64,000 bases of DNA from Escherichia phage vB_EcoM-UFV06. The notes under the pieces are model-generated. The model had not been told where the DNA came from. It did not search any database and was given only the letters and a program-made list of their open reading frames with translations. Numbering within the stretch: the stretch's first letter is position 1; every line of letters begins with the position of its first letter. Position numbers and translations under genes: made by a program. The stretch lies in sequence record OP555980.1; one strand, given 5' to 3'. Positions 18,501-56,761 of this stretch are shown here, one piece after another.

Positions 18501-18622
18501 TATTTGATGCATCTGGAACAACATTTGCACAATTTAGAGATTTAGTTAATAAACGTCTAAAAGATAATATAGGAAATCCAAGAGACCCTGAAAATCCAAC
18601 ACAGGTTAAAATAGATGAATGA
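15524..18622 (+). CDS. 7: gp7 baseplate wedge protein
   Basis: 1032 aa as T4 gp7; synteny. Confidence 0.85.
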   Translation: MTVKAPSVTSLRISKLSANQVQVRWDDVGANFYYFVEIAETKSNSGKNLPSNQYRWINLGYTANNSFFFDDADPLTSYVIRVATAAQDFEQSDWIYTEEFETFATNAYTFQNMIEMQLANKFIQEKFTLNNSDYVNFNNDTIMAALMNESFQFSPSYADVSSISNFIIGENEYHEIQGSIQQVCKDINRVYLMESEGILYLFERYQPVVKVSNDKGQTWKAVKLFNDRVGYPLSKTVYYQSANTTYVLGYDKIFYGRKSTDVRWSADDVRFSSQDITFAKLGDQLHLGFDVEIFATYATLPANVYRIAEAITCTDDYIYVVARDKVRYIKTSNAPIDSDPLSPTYSERLFEPDTMTITGNPKAVCYKMDSIGDKVFALIIGEVETLNANPRTSKIIDSADKGIYVLNHDTKTWKRVFGNTEEERRRIQPGYANMSTDGKLVSLSSSNFKFLSDNIVNDPETAVKYQLIDAVKYEFPREWLADKHYHMMAFIADEKSDWETFTPQPMKYYAEPFFNWSKKSNTRCWINNSDKAVVVYADLKYTKVIENIPETSPDRLVHEYWDDGDCTIVMPNVKFTGFKKYASGMLFYKSSGEIISYYDFNYRVRDTVEIIWKPTEVFLKAFLQNQERETPWSPEEERGLADPDLRPLIGTMMPDSYLLQDSNFEAFCEAYIQYLSDGYGTQYNNLRNLIRNQYPREEHAWEYLWSEIYKRNIYLNADKRDAVARFFESRSYDFYSTKGIEASYKFLFKVLYNEEVEIEIESGAGTEYDVIIQSDSLTEDLVGQTIYTATGRCNVTYIERSYSNGKLQWTVTIHNLLGRLIAGQEVKAERLPGFEGEIIRGVKGKDLLQNNIDYINRSRSYYVMKIKSNLPSSRWKSDVIRFVHPVGFGFIAITLLTMFINVGLTLKHTETIINKYKNYKWDSGLPTEYADRVAKLTPTGEIEHDSVTGEAIYEPGPMSGIEYPLPGDYNTENNNSVFQGQLPSERRKLMSPLFDASGTTFAQFRDLVNKRLKDNIGNPRDPENPTQVKIDE

Positions 18623-19718
18623 TTCAAGTGTTATCTATCGTGCGATAGTTACTTCAAAATTTAGAACAGAAAAAATGTTGAATTTTTATAATTCAATTGG
18701 AAGTGGTCCGGATAAAAACACTATCTTTATCACATTTGGAAGATCAGAACCGTGGTCATCAAATGAAAATGAGGTGGGCTTTGCCCCACCTTATCCTACC
18801 GATTCTGTATTAGGTGTAACTGACATGTGGACTCATATGATGGGAACAGTAAAAGTTCTTCCATCAATGCTTGATGCTGTTATTCCTCGCAGAGATTGGG
18901 GAGATACTAGATATCCGGATCCATACACATTTAGAATTAATGATATTGTAGTGTGCAACTCAGCTCCTTACAACGCTACTGAATCAGGCGCAGGCTGGTT
19001 AGTATATCGTTGTTTAGATGTTCCTGATACCGGAATGTGTTCAATAGCATCTTTAACTAATAAGGATGAATGTCTTAAATTAGGTGGAAAATGGACTCCT
19101 TCTGCTAGGTCAATGACTCCTCCTGAAGGCCGAGGAGATGCTGAAGGAACAATTGAACCTGGCGATGGATATGTATGGGAATATCTTTTTGAGATTCCGC
19201 CTGATGTATCTATAAATAGATGCACGAATGAGTATATTGTAGTTCCTTGGCCTGAGGAATTAAAAGAAGACCCGACTAGATGGGGGTATGAAGATAATCT
19301 CACTTGGCAGCAAGATGATTTTGGATTAATTTACCGTGTTAAGGCAAATACTATCCGTTTTAAAGCATATTTAGATTCAGTTTATTTTCCTGAAGCTGCA
19401 TTGCCGGGAAATAAAGGATTTAGACAAATATCAATAATTACGAATCCTCTTGAAGCTAAAGCTCATCCAAATGACCCAAATGATTTTCCTGAAGCTGCAT
19501 TGCCGGGAAATAAAGGATTTAGACAAATATCAATAATTACGAATCCTCTTGAAGCTAAAGCTCATCCAAATGACCCAAATGTTAAAGCTGAAAAGGATTA
19601 TTATGATCCGGAAGATTTAATGAGGCATTCGGGCGAAATGATTTATATGGAAAATAGGCCACCTATTATTATGGCAATGGATCAGACAGAAGAAATCAAT
19701 ATTCTGTTTACATTTTAA
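18615..19718 (+). CDS. 8: gp8 baseplate wedge protein carrying an in-frame 33-aa tandem duplication
   Basis: 367 aa versus 334 in T4 gp8 as I recall it; the excess is one extra copy of FPEAALPGNKGFRQISIITNPLEAKAHPNDPN. Confidence 0.85.
   Translation: MNDSSVIYRAIVTSKFRTEKMLNFYNSIGSGPDKNTIFITFGRSEPWSSNENEVGFAPPYPTDSVLGVTDMWTHMMGTVKVLPSMLDAVIPRRDWGDTRYPDPYTFRINDIVVCNSAPYNATESGAGWLVYRCLDVPDTGMCSIASLTNKDECLKLGGKWTPSARSMTPPEGRGDAEGTIEPGDGYVWEYLFEIPPDVSINRCTNEYIVVPWPEELKEDPTRWGYEDNLTWQQDDFGLIYRVKANTIRFKAYLDSVYFPEAALPGNKGFRQISIITNPLEAKAHPNDPNDFPEAALPGNKGFRQISIITNPLEAKAHPNDPNVKAEKDYYDPEDLMRHSGEMIYMENRPPIIMAMDQTEEINILFTF
19384..19581. repeat. perfect 99-bp direct tandem duplication (2 copies) inside gene 8
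   Basis: 19384-19482 and 19483-19581 identical base-for-base on hand alignment; flanking bases differ (19383 t vs 19482 g; 19483 a vs 19582 t). Confidence 0.9.
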
Positions 19719-23112: not shown

Positions 23113-24659
23113 GTAACAATACATATCAGCACGTATCAAATGAATCAAAATACGTTAAATTCGATCCTGCAGGATCGAATTTTCCTGACACTGTCACGAC
23201 AGTGCAGTCAGCATTATCAAAAATAAGTAATATCGGCGTAAATGGTATTCCTGATGCAACTATGGAAGTTAAAGGAATAGCAATGATTGCATCGGAGCAA
23301 GAGGTTTTAGATGGAACTAATAATTCTAAAATCGTTACACCAGCTACATTAGCAACAAGATTATTGTATCCAAATGCTACTGAAACTAAATATGGATTAA
23401 CGCGCTATTCAACAAATGAAGAAACTTTAGAAGGCTCAGATAATAATTCATCAATAACGCCGCAAAAACTGAAATACCATACTGACGATGTATTCCAAAA
23501 TAGGTATTCATCTGAATCATCAAATGGAGTTATTAAAATATCATCTACTCCTGCGGCTTTGGCTGGTATAGATGATACTACGGCGATGACTCCGTTGAAA
23601 ACCCAAAAACTCGCAATAAAATTAATTTCGCAAATAGCTCCTTCAGAAGACACAGCATCAGAATCTGTTAGAGGTGTAGTTCAGTTATCAACTGTCGCTC
23701 AAACTCGTCAAGGAACTCTCCGCGAAGGATATGCAATTTCTCCGTATACCTTTATGAATTCTGTTGCAACACAAGAATATAAGGGTGTTATACGTTTAGG
23801 AACACAATCAGAAATTAACAGTAATTTGGGAGATGTTGCAGTAACAGGTGAAACATTAAATGGTCGAGGAGCTACCGGTTCTATGCGTGGGGTAGTAAAA
23901 TTAACGACGCAAGCCGGTATTGCCCCTGAAGGTGATAGCTCTGGAGCATTAGCATGGAACGCAGATGTAATTAATACTCGCGGTGGACAAACTATTAATG
24001 GTTCTTTAAATTTAGATCATTTAACAGCAAATGGAATTTGGTCGCGCGGCGGAATGTGGAAAAATGGCGATCAACCTGTTGCCACTGAAAGATATGCGTC
24101 CGAAAGGGTTCCAGTTGGAACTATTATGATGTTTGCTGGAGATTCAGCTCCTCCTGGTTGGATTATGTGTCATGGTGGAACCGTGTCAGGAGATCAATAT
24201 CCTGATTATAGAAACACAGTTGGAACGAGATTTGGTGGCGATTGGAATAATCCTGGCATTCCTGATATGCGAGGTCTTTTCGTCAGAGGAGCTGGTACTG
24301 GTGGTCATATTTTAAATCAACGAGGGCAAGATGGTTACGGGAAGGATAGACTTGGTGTAGGATGTGACGGAATGCATGTTGGCGGTGTTCAAGCACAACA
24401 GATGTCATACCATAAACATGCTGGTGGTTGGGGAGAATACCAAAGACATGAAGCTCCATTTGGCGCGTCCGTTTATCAAGGATATCTTGGAACTAGAAAA
24501 TATGCCGACTGGGATAATGCTTCATACTTCACTAATGATGGATTTGAATTAGGTGGACCGAGAGATGCCCTTGGTACACTTAATCGTGAAGGATTAATTG
24601 GTTATGAAACTAGACCATGGAATATATCATTAAACTATATTATTAAAATTCATTACTAA
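23109..24659 (+). CDS. 12: gp12 short tail fibre
   Basis: 516 aa (T4 gp12 is 527); synteny between 11 and wac. Confidence 0.85.
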
Positions 24660-40443: not shown

Positions 40444-41448
40444 TTAGCTCACCAACTCAATCCAAGCCGGACGAAGTACATCTTGTACCATTTTAACTAA
40501 TTCCTTTTTAACCAAAGAAGGATTATCCGCTTGAGTTAGAGTAATACCTTCACGAGAAGTTTCTTCCAAAATATCTTGAACAGTTAATCCCATCACCTTT
40601 CCAAAATCTTTTGGACCAATTTCGCCAATTTTGGAAATAACGTTATTTACTCGGTTCAATGTAACATAACAAGCTAAAATTCCAACCAATTTATTATCAG
40701 CTTCTGACAATTCAACTTTAGCTTTAATAGGCTTATCAGACTTTTTCTTTTCACTAAATTTAGAGTTCTTGCATTTGATGGCCACACGATTGCGATTAGG
40801 CAGCCAAGAAGGATAACAAGGTTTCAATACATATCCTTCAGCAGTAAATACTTCGCCTTTTGCTTCGGCATTCCAAACGCATTTATTTGCATCAACTAAT
40901 CCAGCATGGTCTACTGTAAAATTATAATCTTGGACGACAGAATCTAAATCATTTGGCAATTTAATAAGCTCTTCAAATTTACCGCGACCTAAAAGTGGAG
41001 CCATTTTAAATTTAAATGTATTACAGAATGATTCCATCATATAATCATCGACATAAGTCACATCACCACTTTCTGTAGTGACAATAATGTCAAATACATA
41101 AAAATCTTTATCACCATAATCAACATTCTTCTGAATGCCAGGACCAGCGAATTCGCCAAATACCTGATAAGTCACAACAGCTGAAGTTTCCATAATATCT
41201 TGTACTGCTTTAATGGAATCAGCGTAATTCTTTAGAATAATTTCATACCCAAAGAAATCTTCAGCAGGAAGAATCGGTCCAGTACGTTTAGCGCAAGTTA
41301 ATTTATCACGCTCAATAATCAATGAGAAATTTGTGCCGTGAATCTTTTCACGAGCTACCCATTCGCCGCCAGTCAATCCCAAGCTATAAAGTTTTTCAAT
41401 AAATTTAGAGTTGTAATGATTTTCAAGACTGCTATACTTTTTAAACAT
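40444..41448 (-). CDS. rnlB: RNA ligase 2
   Basis: 334 aa; nucleotidyltransferase lysine motif EKIHGTNF. Confidence 0.85.
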
Positions 41449-41457
41449 AATTAATCC

Positions 41458-41736
41458 TCAAAATGTAATTTCTAACCAATCACCATCACGCTGATCACTA
41501 TTGACTTTAAAATTAAATCCTTCTTTTCTCAACCAATCACCAATTTCTTCAGTAATCAATTTATCGCGAGCAGTACAATAATAACTAAAATATGTTTTAC
41601 CTTGTTCAGCTGCTTTATTAGCAAGTTCTGAAAAATCTTTAATAAAGCACTCTAGCTTAAACTGTTTGCTTTTTAATGCTTTTTCGCGTAATTGATTAGC
41701 AAAAGATTCATTTTCATAAAGATCATACTGTTCCAT
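41458..41736 (-). CDS. hypothetical protein (24.2 position)
   Basis: 92-aa ORF downstream of rnlB region. Confidence 0.5.
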   Translation of the reverse strand: MEQYDLYENESFANQLREKALKSKQFKLECFIKDFSELANKAAEQGKTYFSYYCTARDKLITEEIGDWLRKEGFNFKVNSDQRDGDWLEITF

Positions 41737-41938
41737 TTTTCACCTTTTTATTGATATGTCTTTTTCTATAGACAACTTTTTCTCGAGTTTCAAATTTATT
41801 CTTAGCAGTCATAGCTCGAGCCCATAATACAGCCACTTCTTTTGCCTGTAAGTTCAATTCACGAGCAATTTCAATGAATGACTTTCCAGACTCATGAAGA
41901 GTAAACACCACAACCTCAGTTCTCATAATCAATCTCAT
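41723..41938 (-). CDS. hypothetical protein (24.3 position)
   Basis: 71-aa ORF. Confidence 0.5.
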   Translation of the reverse strand: MRLIMRTEVVVFTLHESGKSFIEIARELNLQAKEVAVLWARAMTAKNKFETREKVVYRKRHINKKVKNGTV

Positions 41939-42027
41939 GTTATTGAGTTGGTGCCATTATATACATCGTTTTCTGATTGTGTTTTGTGTGCTTTCAAAAT
42001 GAAGAAAGGGGCCGAAGCCCCTTACGA

Positions 42028-43445
42028 TTATGGATAGGTATAGATGATACCAGTTTCTAAAGCTGTTTTGTGAATGATGTATCCATTACGCGATTCTTGG
42101 ACATCAACTTCTGGATAGTCTTTCATCATCTTCTGAAGCGTATAACGATGCAAGTAGTACTTACTATCTGGGTCGTCAGTTTTCCAATCTTTACCTTCTT
42201 CAGTCATTTTTTGGATTTCATCCATAACCCACCAACCGCACCAGATATAAGCTGAAGTACGGTGCGGAAGAGGATGAACATAAGGCAATTCACCTTCTGG
42301 TTCTGGAGCAACTTTATCAGTCACTTGAACTTGACCTGTTGTTTTAACTGTTTTGCTATCATAATCAGTTGCTGTAACGACAGCAGTAACTTCAATAGTT
42401 TGACTTCCAACAGATGAGGTATCGACAGTATATACGTTAGTTGACCCTTCTACAGGAGAAGAATCTTTCTTCCACGAGTAAGTAATTTGTGCTTCTTCTG
42501 GAGCATCCGTAACATTAGCAGTAAATGTAGCCGAAGCATCTTGCTGAACGTTAATAGAAGGAGGAGTCAATGTAACCTGTGGATTCATTGTCTTCTTATT
42601 AACTGTCAATGATACTTCATTAGAAGTAACTTCCTTTTCATTGTAATTTTCTGCTGTTACTTGGGCTACGCATTTAATTCTTTTTACTCCACTTGTAGTT
42701 GGAGTATAGCTAAATGTAGAGTTAGTTTCTCCACCAACTTGTGAATCATCTACATACCATTTATATGTAGCAGACGCTCCATCAGGTTGAGAAGCTAAGG
42801 CAGCAGTAAATTGAACTGGGGTTCCAATTACTCCAGCTGAAGGACTAGCAGGAGTTACTGCCAATGTAGTTGTCTGTGTCTTTTTATTAACAGTCAGTGA
42901 TACTTCATTCGAAGTAACGGTTTTTTCATCATAATTTGTCGCGGTTACTTGAGCTACACACTTGATTTTTTTAACTCCGCTTGCGGCAGGAGTGTAATTG
43001 AATGTAGCAGAAGTCGCTTCGTCTACAGGAGAACTGTCAACGTACCATTGATACGTAGCAGATGCACCTGATGGCTGCGAAGCTAAAGCAGCGGTAAATT
43101 TAACAGCTGTTCCAATTACTCCTGCTGGAGGACTATTGGGAGTTACGGCTAAGGTAGTCGTCTGAGTTTTGTTTTTGACTGTGATAGTTGTAGTAGCTTC
43201 TGCTGTTTCAGCTTCAGATTCTGGAACTGTATTTGTTGCAACAACTTTAATAGTCTTTTGACCAGCAGGACCTTTTAATACATAATCAAAAGTTGCTTCA
43301 GACCCATCTTGTGGAGCATTATCTACACTCCAAGCATAAGTAATAGTTCCACCTCCAGTTTCACCACGGGTGCAGCAGTAAACTGCTTGGTTTCATCAAT
43401 AACTCCTGACGGTGCTTTAGGAGTTATATCAACTGTAAAAGCCAT
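42028..43445 (-). pseudogene. hoc: hoc (highly immunogenic outer capsid protein), interrupted by a frameshift near codon 29
   Basis: ATG at 43445 gives MAFTVDITPKAPSGVIDETKQFTAAP then stops at 43325-43323 after 40 codons; rest of Hoc (Ig-like domains and C-terminal ...PYVHPLPHRTSAYIWCGWWVMDEIQ...IIYTYP) is open in another frame from 43392 to 42028 with no ATG before a TTG at 42864; span is 1418 nt (2 mod 3). Confidence 0.7.
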
Positions 43446-43454
43446 AAGTTATCC

Positions 43455-44135
43455 TTATTTTAATGTTACGAAAGAAGAATTGCGTGTTTCACGAATTAAA
43501 ACTGATCCGTCGCGATTAATGTAATAAATTAAGCTAAACAAAGTTTGGTGTGCTGACGCGTGTTCAAAACTAGTTGGATGAGATTTCCAATCAGGAGTTT
43601 CAGCGATCCATTGATAAATCCACCAAGGAACCGTACAGAATCCTGGATTTTTCCCCAATAATTGAAGATTCGGGCTAAAGTTTTCCGGAAGAGTAAATAC
43701 AGACGGCTTTTCAGATTCAATAATCTCAGCTACAGCTTGTTCAAACTTTTCTTCAACAAAAGGAGTGTCTTCAATCAAAACATCAGTATTTTCAGGAATT
43801 TTATCCGTTTCTACAACTTCAATTTTAATATCAGATTTAACTGGAGAATCAATCAGAAGCGCTGCTTCTGGATTAACTTCTTCATCGTCATATTTTAATC
43901 CCTCTGCAGCATCAGCAGCATCAATTAAGTCTTTAATAGATAACCCATCAGTCTCTGGCATAGGTTCACTAGCGAGCTTCTGGAGGGCTTCTTCAATATC
44001 AACAACGATATTATCAAAAGATTTATTCTTTTTGACCTTTATACCAAACTGTTCAGCATATTCAGCTAATTTAGCTTTAGCTTCTTTATTATCATCAAGA
44101 GCCTTCAGCTCTGCAATATAATCTTTATCTATCAT
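43455..44135 (-). CDS. inh: Inh, inhibitor of prohead protease
   Basis: 226 aa as T4 Inh; position between hoc and uvsW. Confidence 0.7.
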   Translation of the reverse strand: MIDKDYIAELKALDDNKEAKAKLAEYAEQFGIKVKKNKSFDNIVVDIEEALQKLASEPMPETDGLSIKDLIDAADAAEGLKYDDEEVNPEAALLIDSPVKSDIKIEVVETDKIPENTDVLIEDTPFVEEKFEQAVAEIIESEKPSVFTLPENFSPNLQLLGKNPGFCTVPWWIYQWIAETPDWKSHPTSFEHASAHQTLFSLIYYINRDGSVLIRETRNSSFVTLK

Positions 44136-54703: not shown

Positions 54704-56761
54704 CTACATTTTGAACTTTTTAGACATTCCGTTGATGTTAACCAAAGAAGCTAAGATTTGAGAAACTTCGTTTTCCTCTTCTTTTGATTCTTCTACAAGG
54801 AATTGATTAAATCCAGCCATTGGACGAACTTCACCAGTTTCCATCAGATGGTCGCCATCATATACTGATTCTTCTAATTGTTCAGAAGGAGGAACGATTG
54901 TACCTTCGATTAGATACTTGTTATAAGCAGTTTCTTTCATCATGTACGTACTTACTTTATTAATCTTCAGTAAAATTCCACGCGGCAAAATAACTTCAGC
55001 TTCGGATGGAAATCCTGATAAATGACCTGGAACGATAACTTTAACTCGTTCAGCTCCTTTAATTACCATACCTACATTAGTTTCAGCGTCTTCATTCGCA
55101 TATGTAGAATGACTACCCATATGCATTAAATCTTCAGCATCAACTGAACCTTCTCCTTCACCAGAAAATACTGCTCCGGAATCATCTAAGGCCATATAAT
55201 TTTTACCATATTCACCGAAGATATTTGGCTTGAGTGAAGTAGATACAAAGTTCTTGAAATAGAACATTTTATTTTCTATATTATGACGTAAAGTTTTAAA
55301 GGTAACTTCTTGCCCACGATAAAGAGTAGTTCCTGGAGGAAGAACTGAACCTTTAGAAAATGCAGAATCCAGCGTCTCAATATGTTTAATAGCTCGTTCC
55401 ATATATTCTTCACGGGTAGAATCAGGTTTACCTAGAAGGAACGAGTTCATTTCAACATATGAATCTGCGCAATAATCTTCAATTACATCAGACTCAGCCT
55501 GAGTTAATCCTTTTGGAGTTACTTCAGTGCTTGCATATTCATATGCCTGAGCAGCAGATTCATCAATTAATTTATAAATTCCATTCATTACAAATTGAAT
55601 AATAGCTGTCTTTTCATCTGGTGTAGCTTTAGAACCTTTAACTAAATCATTGACAATTTTCTTAATAACATCAAAGCTATTAGAAATATTAATGTCAGCA
55701 AGATCGCTTAAAATTTTATCAGTTTTATAATCAAAGAATTCTTTATTCTTTAAATATTCTTGAGAACCTTGATATGTTATATCGCTCTGCAGCTTGATAG
55801 ATGGATCGCGTAAACGTGCATGGGCCAATGCAATATGATTTCGGAAGCTTTCGAGTTCATAATCACTAGATTTAAAACGAGAAGCACTTCTCATACCACC
55901 GATAGCTCCTTTGCTAAAGTTTGAACCAACCTGAATAACGCCAGAGTTCATTGGTCCTTCTGCTTTATATACCGGAACTTTAGATTCAAACTCTTGATAT
56001 TTCTTAGCAGCGAAGCTATCACCCTGAAGTGAAGCATCAACAGTAGAATATTGAGCTTGTGCTGCTAATCGACGACTAATTTTAGTTTTCTGAATAACAG
56101 CTTGATCCGTGCGCTTATCATTTTCTAAAGCAATAGAAGCAGCAACAGCAACAGCTTTAGGAACAGCATTACCTGTTTTAACGTCTACATAAACATCACC
56201 AACCTTTGATTCAACTTTTGTGAATAACTCGGTTGAAATAGGAGGTACACCTGGAATGTCTTCTAAATTGGCATTTTTACGGTAAACCATAATATATGCG
56301 TACTTTTTATCATAATCCCAGATTTCCTTTAAAAGAACATATCGACCTGCTCCTTTAGTACGTACTAAACGGTCAGCAATAACTTGCATTTGCCGAGCAG
56401 CGCCATTTGTTTTACTTTTTAGTACGCGGAATAAGCATGCATCAATTTTATACTGTTTCATTGTTTGAAGAGCAGTATCAAAAACAGCATTAATGACGCC
56501 AATTGGATTTCCACCCAAGTTTTTAAGCTTAACTAATGATAGTTTCTCATTAACACCTATCATTACGATATGCATCATTTTGTCGCCTGGCTTAACGTTT
56601 TTATTCGTATCACCGCCAGAGGTGTATGTACAAAATCTAAATCCAGGAAGCACGCTTTCTTCACCTGCTTGAATAGCAAAAATTTGAGGTATTTTATGCT
56701 TAGGATTTAAGTTAACAACCGGCGCCGAAGCGCCGTCAAATAATTCTGTAATAAGTTCCAT
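54704..56761 (-). CDS. Alt-like mono-ADP-ribosyltransferase, paralog 2
   Basis: 685 aa; N-terminus MELITELFD shared with neighbour; Arg-STS-ExE signature (LYRGQ, FVSTSL, SEAEVILPRG). Confidence 0.8.
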   Translation of the reverse strand: MELITELFDGASAPVVNLNPKHKIPQIFAIQAGEESVLPGFRFCTYTSGGDTNKNVKPGDKMMHIVMIGVNEKLSLVKLKNLGGNPIGVINAVFDTALQTMKQYKIDACLFRVLKSKTNGAARQMQVIADRLVRTKGAGRYVLLKEIWDYDKKYAYIMVYRKNANLEDIPGVPPISTELFTKVESKVGDVYVDVKTGNAVPKAVAVAASIALENDKRTDQAVIQKTKISRRLAAQAQYSTVDASLQGDSFAAKKYQEFESKVPVYKAEGPMNSGVIQVGSNFSKGAIGGMRSASRFKSSDYELESFRNHIALAHARLRDPSIKLQSDITYQGSQEYLKNKEFFDYKTDKILSDLADINISNSFDVIKKIVNDLVKGSKATPDEKTAIIQFVMNGIYKLIDESAAQAYEYASTEVTPKGLTQAESDVIEDYCADSYVEMNSFLLGKPDSTREEYMERAIKHIETLDSAFSKGSVLPPGTTLYRGQEVTFKTLRHNIENKMFYFKNFVSTSLKPNIFGEYGKNYMALDDSGAVFSGEGEGSVDAEDLMHMGSHSTYANEDAETNVGMVIKGAERVKVIVPGHLSGFPSEAEVILPRGILLKINKVSTYMMKETAYNKYLIEGTIVPPSEQLEESVYDGDHLMETGEVRPMAGFNQFLVEESKEEENEVSQILASLVNINGMSKKFKM

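Follow-up and report, generated by a model that had tools for sequence, protein, structure and literature searches.

The hoc gene (highly immunogenic outer capsid protein) of Escherichia phage vB_EcoM-UFV06 very probably carries two old, diverged types of its domain-2 module, A and B, set head to tail in a cassette that changes copy number by unequal recombination; the two-copy state found here is a common one, and the gene itself is broken in this isolate. We analysed a 64,000-nucleotide stretch of record OP555980.1 (referred to hereafter as the window; position 1 is its first letter), which over the stretch queried is 100% identical to Escherichia phage vB_EcoM-UFV05 (OP572230.1, Tequatrovirus), hoc likewise being 100% identical. 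The features of the locus are given below, with residue numbers referring to the frameshift-repaired protein.

40444-41448, minus strand: rnlB homolog.
41458-41736, minus strand: 24.2 homolog.
41723-41938, minus strand: 24.3 homolog.
42028-43445, minus strand: hoc, 1418 nt, a pseudogene as sequenced.
42031-42306, minus strand: C-terminal capsid-binding domain (residues 381-472).
42307-42594, minus strand: domain 3 (D3), Ig-like, I-set/Ig_3-like (residues 285-380).
42595-42882, minus strand: unit D2b, type B (residues 189-284), the counterpart of T4 domain 2, its DNA 91% identical to the T4 unit.
42883-43170, minus strand: unit D2a, type A (residues 93-188), a module absent from T4.
43171-43445, minus strand: domain 1 (D1), Ig-like (residues 1-92), placed by alignment to T4 Hoc and broken by the frameshift.
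43366-43368, minus strand: frameshift site, an A lost at hoc nt 79, codon 27 (CCC AGT GGT becomes CCC GT GGT).
43455-44135, minus strand: inh, with uvsW next to it on the opposite strand.

On sequence grounds we identify the gene at 42028-43445 as hoc, both from its position between inh and 24.3/rnlB and from a C-terminal domain that is nearly that of T4. Comparison of the window ORFs with the T4 annotation returns the T4 order (rnlB, 24.2, 24.3, hoc, inh, uvsW), and comparison with the ECP52 annotation again finds hoc flanked by inh and by 24.3/24.2/rnlB. The window protein matches T4 Hoc chains (5vf3_Z and others) at E = 4e-219 in phmmer, residues 189-472 aligning to T4 residues 93-376 with 574 bits, and the C-terminal domain (residues 381-472, against T4 284-376) differs by one non-synonymous change (dN 0.004). 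The deposited UFV05 annotation holds hoc in fragments, as a 40-aa ‘head decoration protein’ and a 278-aa ‘capsid and scaffold protein’. Inspection by eye picks out a G+C-rich hairpin (GGGGCCGAAGCCCC) at about 42003-42026, 3' of the hoc stop and before the 24.3 homolog, which looks like an intrinsic terminator; the NBG2 and fPS-90 records have a ‘terminator’ feature annotated under the region matching the hoc gene.

The first-pass annotation of this DNA had described two adjacent segments of ~290 bp, similar but diverged (42591-42880 and 42881-43170), and had read them as a tandem duplication giving Hoc an extra Ig-like domain. The repeat is real: a repeat search recovers two 288-nt copies (42589-42876 and 42877-43164) that are 75% identical at a spacing of exactly 288, and Tandem Repeats Finder reports a period of 288, 2.0 copies, 76% matches and a score of 663. 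The bounds first given lie a few bases off the units in codon register (42595-42882 and 42883-43170), and the example strings and peptides quoted with them are correct, the peptides being found in minus-strand frame 2. D2a and D2b share 214 of 288 bases (the several measures of identity spanning 74-76%), which stands at z = 19 against 20,000 shuffles (75 ± 7 identical bases, maximum 107), such that self-comparison of the gene returns a significant internal repeat. Their translations agree at 76 of 96 residues (BLASTP, E = 2e-52), and the segments do encode two related domains, as had been proposed; the remaining Ig-like domains of Hoc are far more distant from this pair (30-42% identity; D1 against D2a, E = 1e-12). 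We rejected an assembly artefact as the origin of the repeat, since assemblers cannot collapse or expand units with 75% identity, and the arrangement recurs in many independent records.

Repair of the frameshift yields a hoc of 1419 nt (472 codons and a stop), to be compared with the 1131 nt and 376 aa of T4 (NC_000866, 110187-111317); the lengths of about 472 and 376 residues that had been given for the two proteins are thus exact. Alignment of the repaired protein with T4 Hoc shows a single clean 96-residue insertion, with D2b aligning to T4 domain 2, so that T4 has one domain-2-type module and the window protein two. That this additional module is Ig-like, as had also been suggested, agrees with profile searches and with structure prediction. 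The Pfam PKD model hits D2b above cut-off (28.7 bits) and D2a just below it (20.1 bits, E = 6e-4, against a cut-off of 23.5 bits), and Ig_3/I-set matches fall on D3, with PKD/Ig hits in both whole-protein and single-unit searches. An AlphaFold2 model, calculated from the window's own translation past the frameshift (445 aa, 26-row alignment), has a mean pLDDT of 82, with block means mostly 83-95 across D2a, D2b and D3 (per unit, about 72-92 for an all-beta D2a and about 90-95 for D2b), and displays an all-beta strand pattern that recurs unit by unit. Foldseek places strings of three to five Ig domains (Dscam, NCAM, ICAM) at the top of its PDB matches to this model (E about 1e-11). The predictions support an Ig-like (Ig/PKD-like) fold for both domain-2 units.

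The age of the two units bears directly on how the array arose. A recent duplication in situ, in which domain 2 was copied within this lineage and then diverged quickly to give a lineage-specific novelty, would sit comfortably with units that are exactly adjacent and in frame and with unit boundaries that are highly conserved (...VTSNEVSLTVNKKTQTTTLAVTP...). Such an origin is nonetheless scarcely tenable: within the window, D2a and D2b are separated by a dS of 1.54, which is near saturation, whereas orthologous parts of hoc separate UFV05 from T4 or PP01 by only 0.19-0.39, and type A orthologs of D2a are present at 84-98% identity in six other phages (ECP52, PP01, phiD1, teqskov, OMNI12 and Sfk20). 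The first units of all multi-unit alleles examined group together as a single clade in 199 of 200 bootstraps, being 84-99% identical to one another and 74-82% identical to later units. The high dS, a dN/dS of 0.09 between D2a and D2b, and the first-unit clade together argue that A and B are old module types held under purifying selection, as opposed to the products of a fresh duplication. The duplication is not peculiar to the window phage; by sequence it belongs to an old allele class common to many Tequatrovirus phages.

Comparison of Hoc lengths among relatives, which the first-pass annotation had named as a check, resolves a series that ascends by whole units. Domain-2-type units number zero in JQD51 (280 aa), one in T4, RB68 and NBEco003 (376 aa), two in UFV05, ECP52, PP01, phiD1 and teqskov (472 aa), three in OMNI12 (568 aa) and four in Sfk20 (664 aa), the three- and four-unit arrays (OMNI12, Sfk20) ending in a third unit type, C (...PGASATYQWYVDGSLVDGETTTTF...). 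A single-piece hoc of 1419 nt is found in many records (ECP52, ECO4, G28, Sf23, PP01, phiD1, PhiZZ30). To survey lengths we took 60 evenly spaced records from the 678 that matched a full-gene search: 20 have a hoc of 1419-1425 nt, about 26 have the 1131 nt of T4, and a further three, OMNI12 and Sfk20 among them, align across both units, their D1 being divergent. (A megablast with D2a alone was rejected as a count of type A, because single-unit type A alleles match it too and divergent units are missed.) D3 and the C-terminal part are present in about 605 records. We estimate that the 472-aa form makes up ~40% of about 600 Tequatrovirus hoc records, a proportion of database records whose isolates are non-independent. 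Among the best 120 clusters from a collection of 5.8 billion proteins, 30 are of 468-472 aa (444 member sequences) and nine of 567-570 aa. The five-domain, 472-aa allele is accordingly common and already annotated in many genomes (the relatives' proteins as ‘Hoc-like head decoration’ or ‘PKD domain protein’), and papers have previously reported that Hoc differs in domain number between phages; a literature search aimed at the 472-aa Tequatrovirus allele itself returned general statements on domain number and one Klebsiella phage, and no allele-specific paper.

Sequences of individual alleles capture the recombination itself. The 376-aa hoc of NBEco003 equals the hoc of ECP52 minus 288 nt, with nine mismatches in 1131, and in its single unit all informative sites as far as nt 84 agree with ECP52 type A, and those from nt 93 on with type B, placing the crossover at unit nt 85-93; comparison of the two genes shows that this T4-length allele derives from a five-domain allele by a 288-nt unequal crossover. 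Other junctions are visible in ECO111 5-P, a comparable A/B chimera of teqskov-like units, and in the T4 unit, of type B except for a type A tail. The 1131-nt hoc of ATK48 has a unit of type A throughout (93.7% identity with D2a across 287 nt). T4-length alleles can, on this sequence evidence, arise from a two-unit allele by deletion. Alleles that differ by whole units, together with chimeric units whose breakpoint falls inside the unit, mark the array as a variable-number cassette.

The direction of this traffic could in principle be the reverse, with A and B diverging as alleles in different phages and being joined later by unequal crossover in a mixed infection. In favour of this are the four-domain alleles, some having a B unit (T4, RB68), one an A unit (ATK48) and others chimeric units, and T4-type phages recombine very actively. 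We consider this origin unlikely, however: type A comes first in every multi-unit allele examined and type C closes the three- and four-unit arrays, an order that fits a conserved ancestral array losing units, and the alleles examined include a demonstrable deletion product (NBEco003) but no fresh fusion product. Our preferred reading remains that of an old cassette. In it the window gene has two long-diverged versions of the domain-2 Ig/PKD-like module, A and B, lying head to tail and in frame; copy number would shift in whole 288-nt steps as units undergo unequal homologous recombination with one another, such that Tequatrovirus populations would hold alleles with zero to four copies, the two-copy allele being one common state. 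In the window phage as sequenced, a one-base deletion at codon 27 brings translation to a stop after 40 codons and leaves no Hoc with a capsid-binding domain.

That hoc is frameshifted here had been noticed in the first-pass annotation, and both alignment with UFV09 and ECP52 and a blastn comparison of the window with UFV09 confirm that one A is missing. Frame 0 of the window hoc ends after 40 codons, at 43323, and the window holds no intact reading frame for Hoc; as sequenced, the gene is by its reading frame a pseudogene, and the virion is probably Hoc-less. Two routes by which a product might be rescued were discounted. Programmed frameshifting at GCA CCC GUG GUG was rejected, since the site lacks a slippery heptamer and the intact relatives differ just by an extra A. 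Re-initiation to a shorter Hoc is unlikely; beyond the shift, a TTG at 42864 (278-aa ORF) offers the sole in-frame start, and inspection of the sequence upstream of this TTG revealed no Shine-Dalgarno.

The sister phages inform on whether the lesion is genuine. Across 64 kb, the window differs from UFV09 (MZ291552.2), a sister phage in the same laboratory's collection, by five point differences and one 99-nt indel, and two of the five fall in hoc (43260 and 43367; P about 0.005, judged by position alone). The UFV09 gene is itself interrupted, by a CAA to TAA change at codon 63, and UFV10 (OP555981.1) and UFV11 (OP555982.1) have the same truncated 63-codon hoc CDS as UFV09. Of the remaining differences, those at 24495 and 24501 lie 6 nt apart in the short-tail-fibre region (a ‘straight tail fiber’ ORF in UFV09), and that at 56555 lies in a hypothetical protein adjoining an Alt-like ADP-ribosyltransferase. 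The indel corresponds to a perfect (100%) tandem duplication of 99 nt at 19384-19581, within the ORF for a gp8-like baseplate wedge protein (18615-19718, plus strand; 367 aa), where it encodes a 33-aa repeat (DFPEAALPGNKGFRQISIITNPLEAKAHPNDPN twice); the near-identical UFV09 has one copy of this unit. Either an essential baseplate gene has acquired an in-frame duplication very recently, or the assembly is at fault here.

We also weighed the reading in which faulty sequencing or assembly produced the hoc frameshift, so that the phage would still make a complete 472-aa Hoc. Just one base is missing, it is missing in a single deposited assembly, and the perfect 99-nt duplication in the baseplate gene of that same assembly may signal assembly problems; the UFV09 paper (PMC8468216) contains no sequencing details useful for judging the window frameshift. 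An error of this kind is improbable all the same, given that the missing A lies outside any homopolymer run (CCC-A-GT), that UFV09, UFV10 and UFV11 have a different inactivating change at codon 63, and that two of only five point differences in 64 kb are in hoc. With both of those differences inactivating, each in a different lineage, the pattern suggests genuine, repeated and independent loss of a dispensable hoc in this lineage.

Placed alongside known Hoc systems, the window gene is closest to the five-domain alleles of its genus. T4 hoc (structures PDB 5vf3, 8t1x and 8t9r) shares its locus and orientation but is without the 96-aa D2a module that the window protein has between D1 and D2, and the window copy differs again in its frameshift at codon 27. 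Along its full length the hoc of ECP52 has 98.5% DNA identity to the window gene, and it forms an unbroken 1419-nt ORF, the window copy being one base short; the Hocs of ECP52, ECO4, G28, Sf23, PP01, phiD1 and teqskov have the identical five-domain architecture, with their genes intact. In the T2 record (PV958097.1, 162497-163813), hoc is disrupted and annotated as three ‘Hoc-like head decoration protein’ CDS. T2 hoc is thus naturally broken like that of the window, but has the four-domain length and different lesions. T2 capsids are not known to carry Hoc.

Variation in domain number extends well beyond this genus. Hoc homologs range from a single Ig-like domain up to the ten in a Hoc-like protein from Serratia phage Muldoon (PMC10385173, section 3.6); Klebsiella phage PMBT63 has a Hoc-like protein with one additional Ig-like domain (PMC13435897), and the Hoc of phage PNJ-9 is without domain 3 (PMC11853027). 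Those three are more distant homologs, in contrast to the present case, in which one module type varies within one genus and recombinant intermediates are visible.

In the ‘bacteriophage adherence to mucus’ model Hoc acts as the capsid adhesin; it is also in wide use as a display platform. Its C-terminal domain binds the centre of the gp23* hexamer, from which a 180-Å fibre of Ig-like domains projects (PMC10385173; Fokine et al, 2023), and the motif NEVSLT (N180-T185) is the reported MUC2-binding site in domain 2 of PNJ-9 Hoc (PMC11853027). T4 Hoc has a single NEVSLT (position 180), the window protein has two (180 and 276), and the three- and four-unit alleles have three and four, with one motif per unit. 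An intact 472-aa Hoc would accordingly be expected to form a fibre about one Ig domain (~45 Å) longer, with a second NEVSLT exposed, and an avidity effect of the extra copies on adhesion would be plausible. The first-pass annotation had raised the prospect that domain number affects capsid surface adhesion; any such effect of an added domain is irrelevant to this isolate, whose hoc is frameshifted as sequenced.

In practical terms, then, the window phage appears to have a dead hoc. For work that takes the 376-aa T4 Hoc as its reference, it is worth knowing that a 472-aa, two-cassette allele is common in Tequatrovirus; further interest is limited to the parallel knock-outs of hoc in sibling phages and to the clean recombinant series. 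We offer tentatively, and with considerable doubt, a reading in which Hoc is actively selected against under some condition that the phages have met (propagation, purification or source water) and, as a separate matter, one in which the domain-2 array allows adhesion to be adjusted quickly. If true, that array, with its 0-4 copies of mosaic types A, B and C, would be a length/avidity dial for capsid adhesion.
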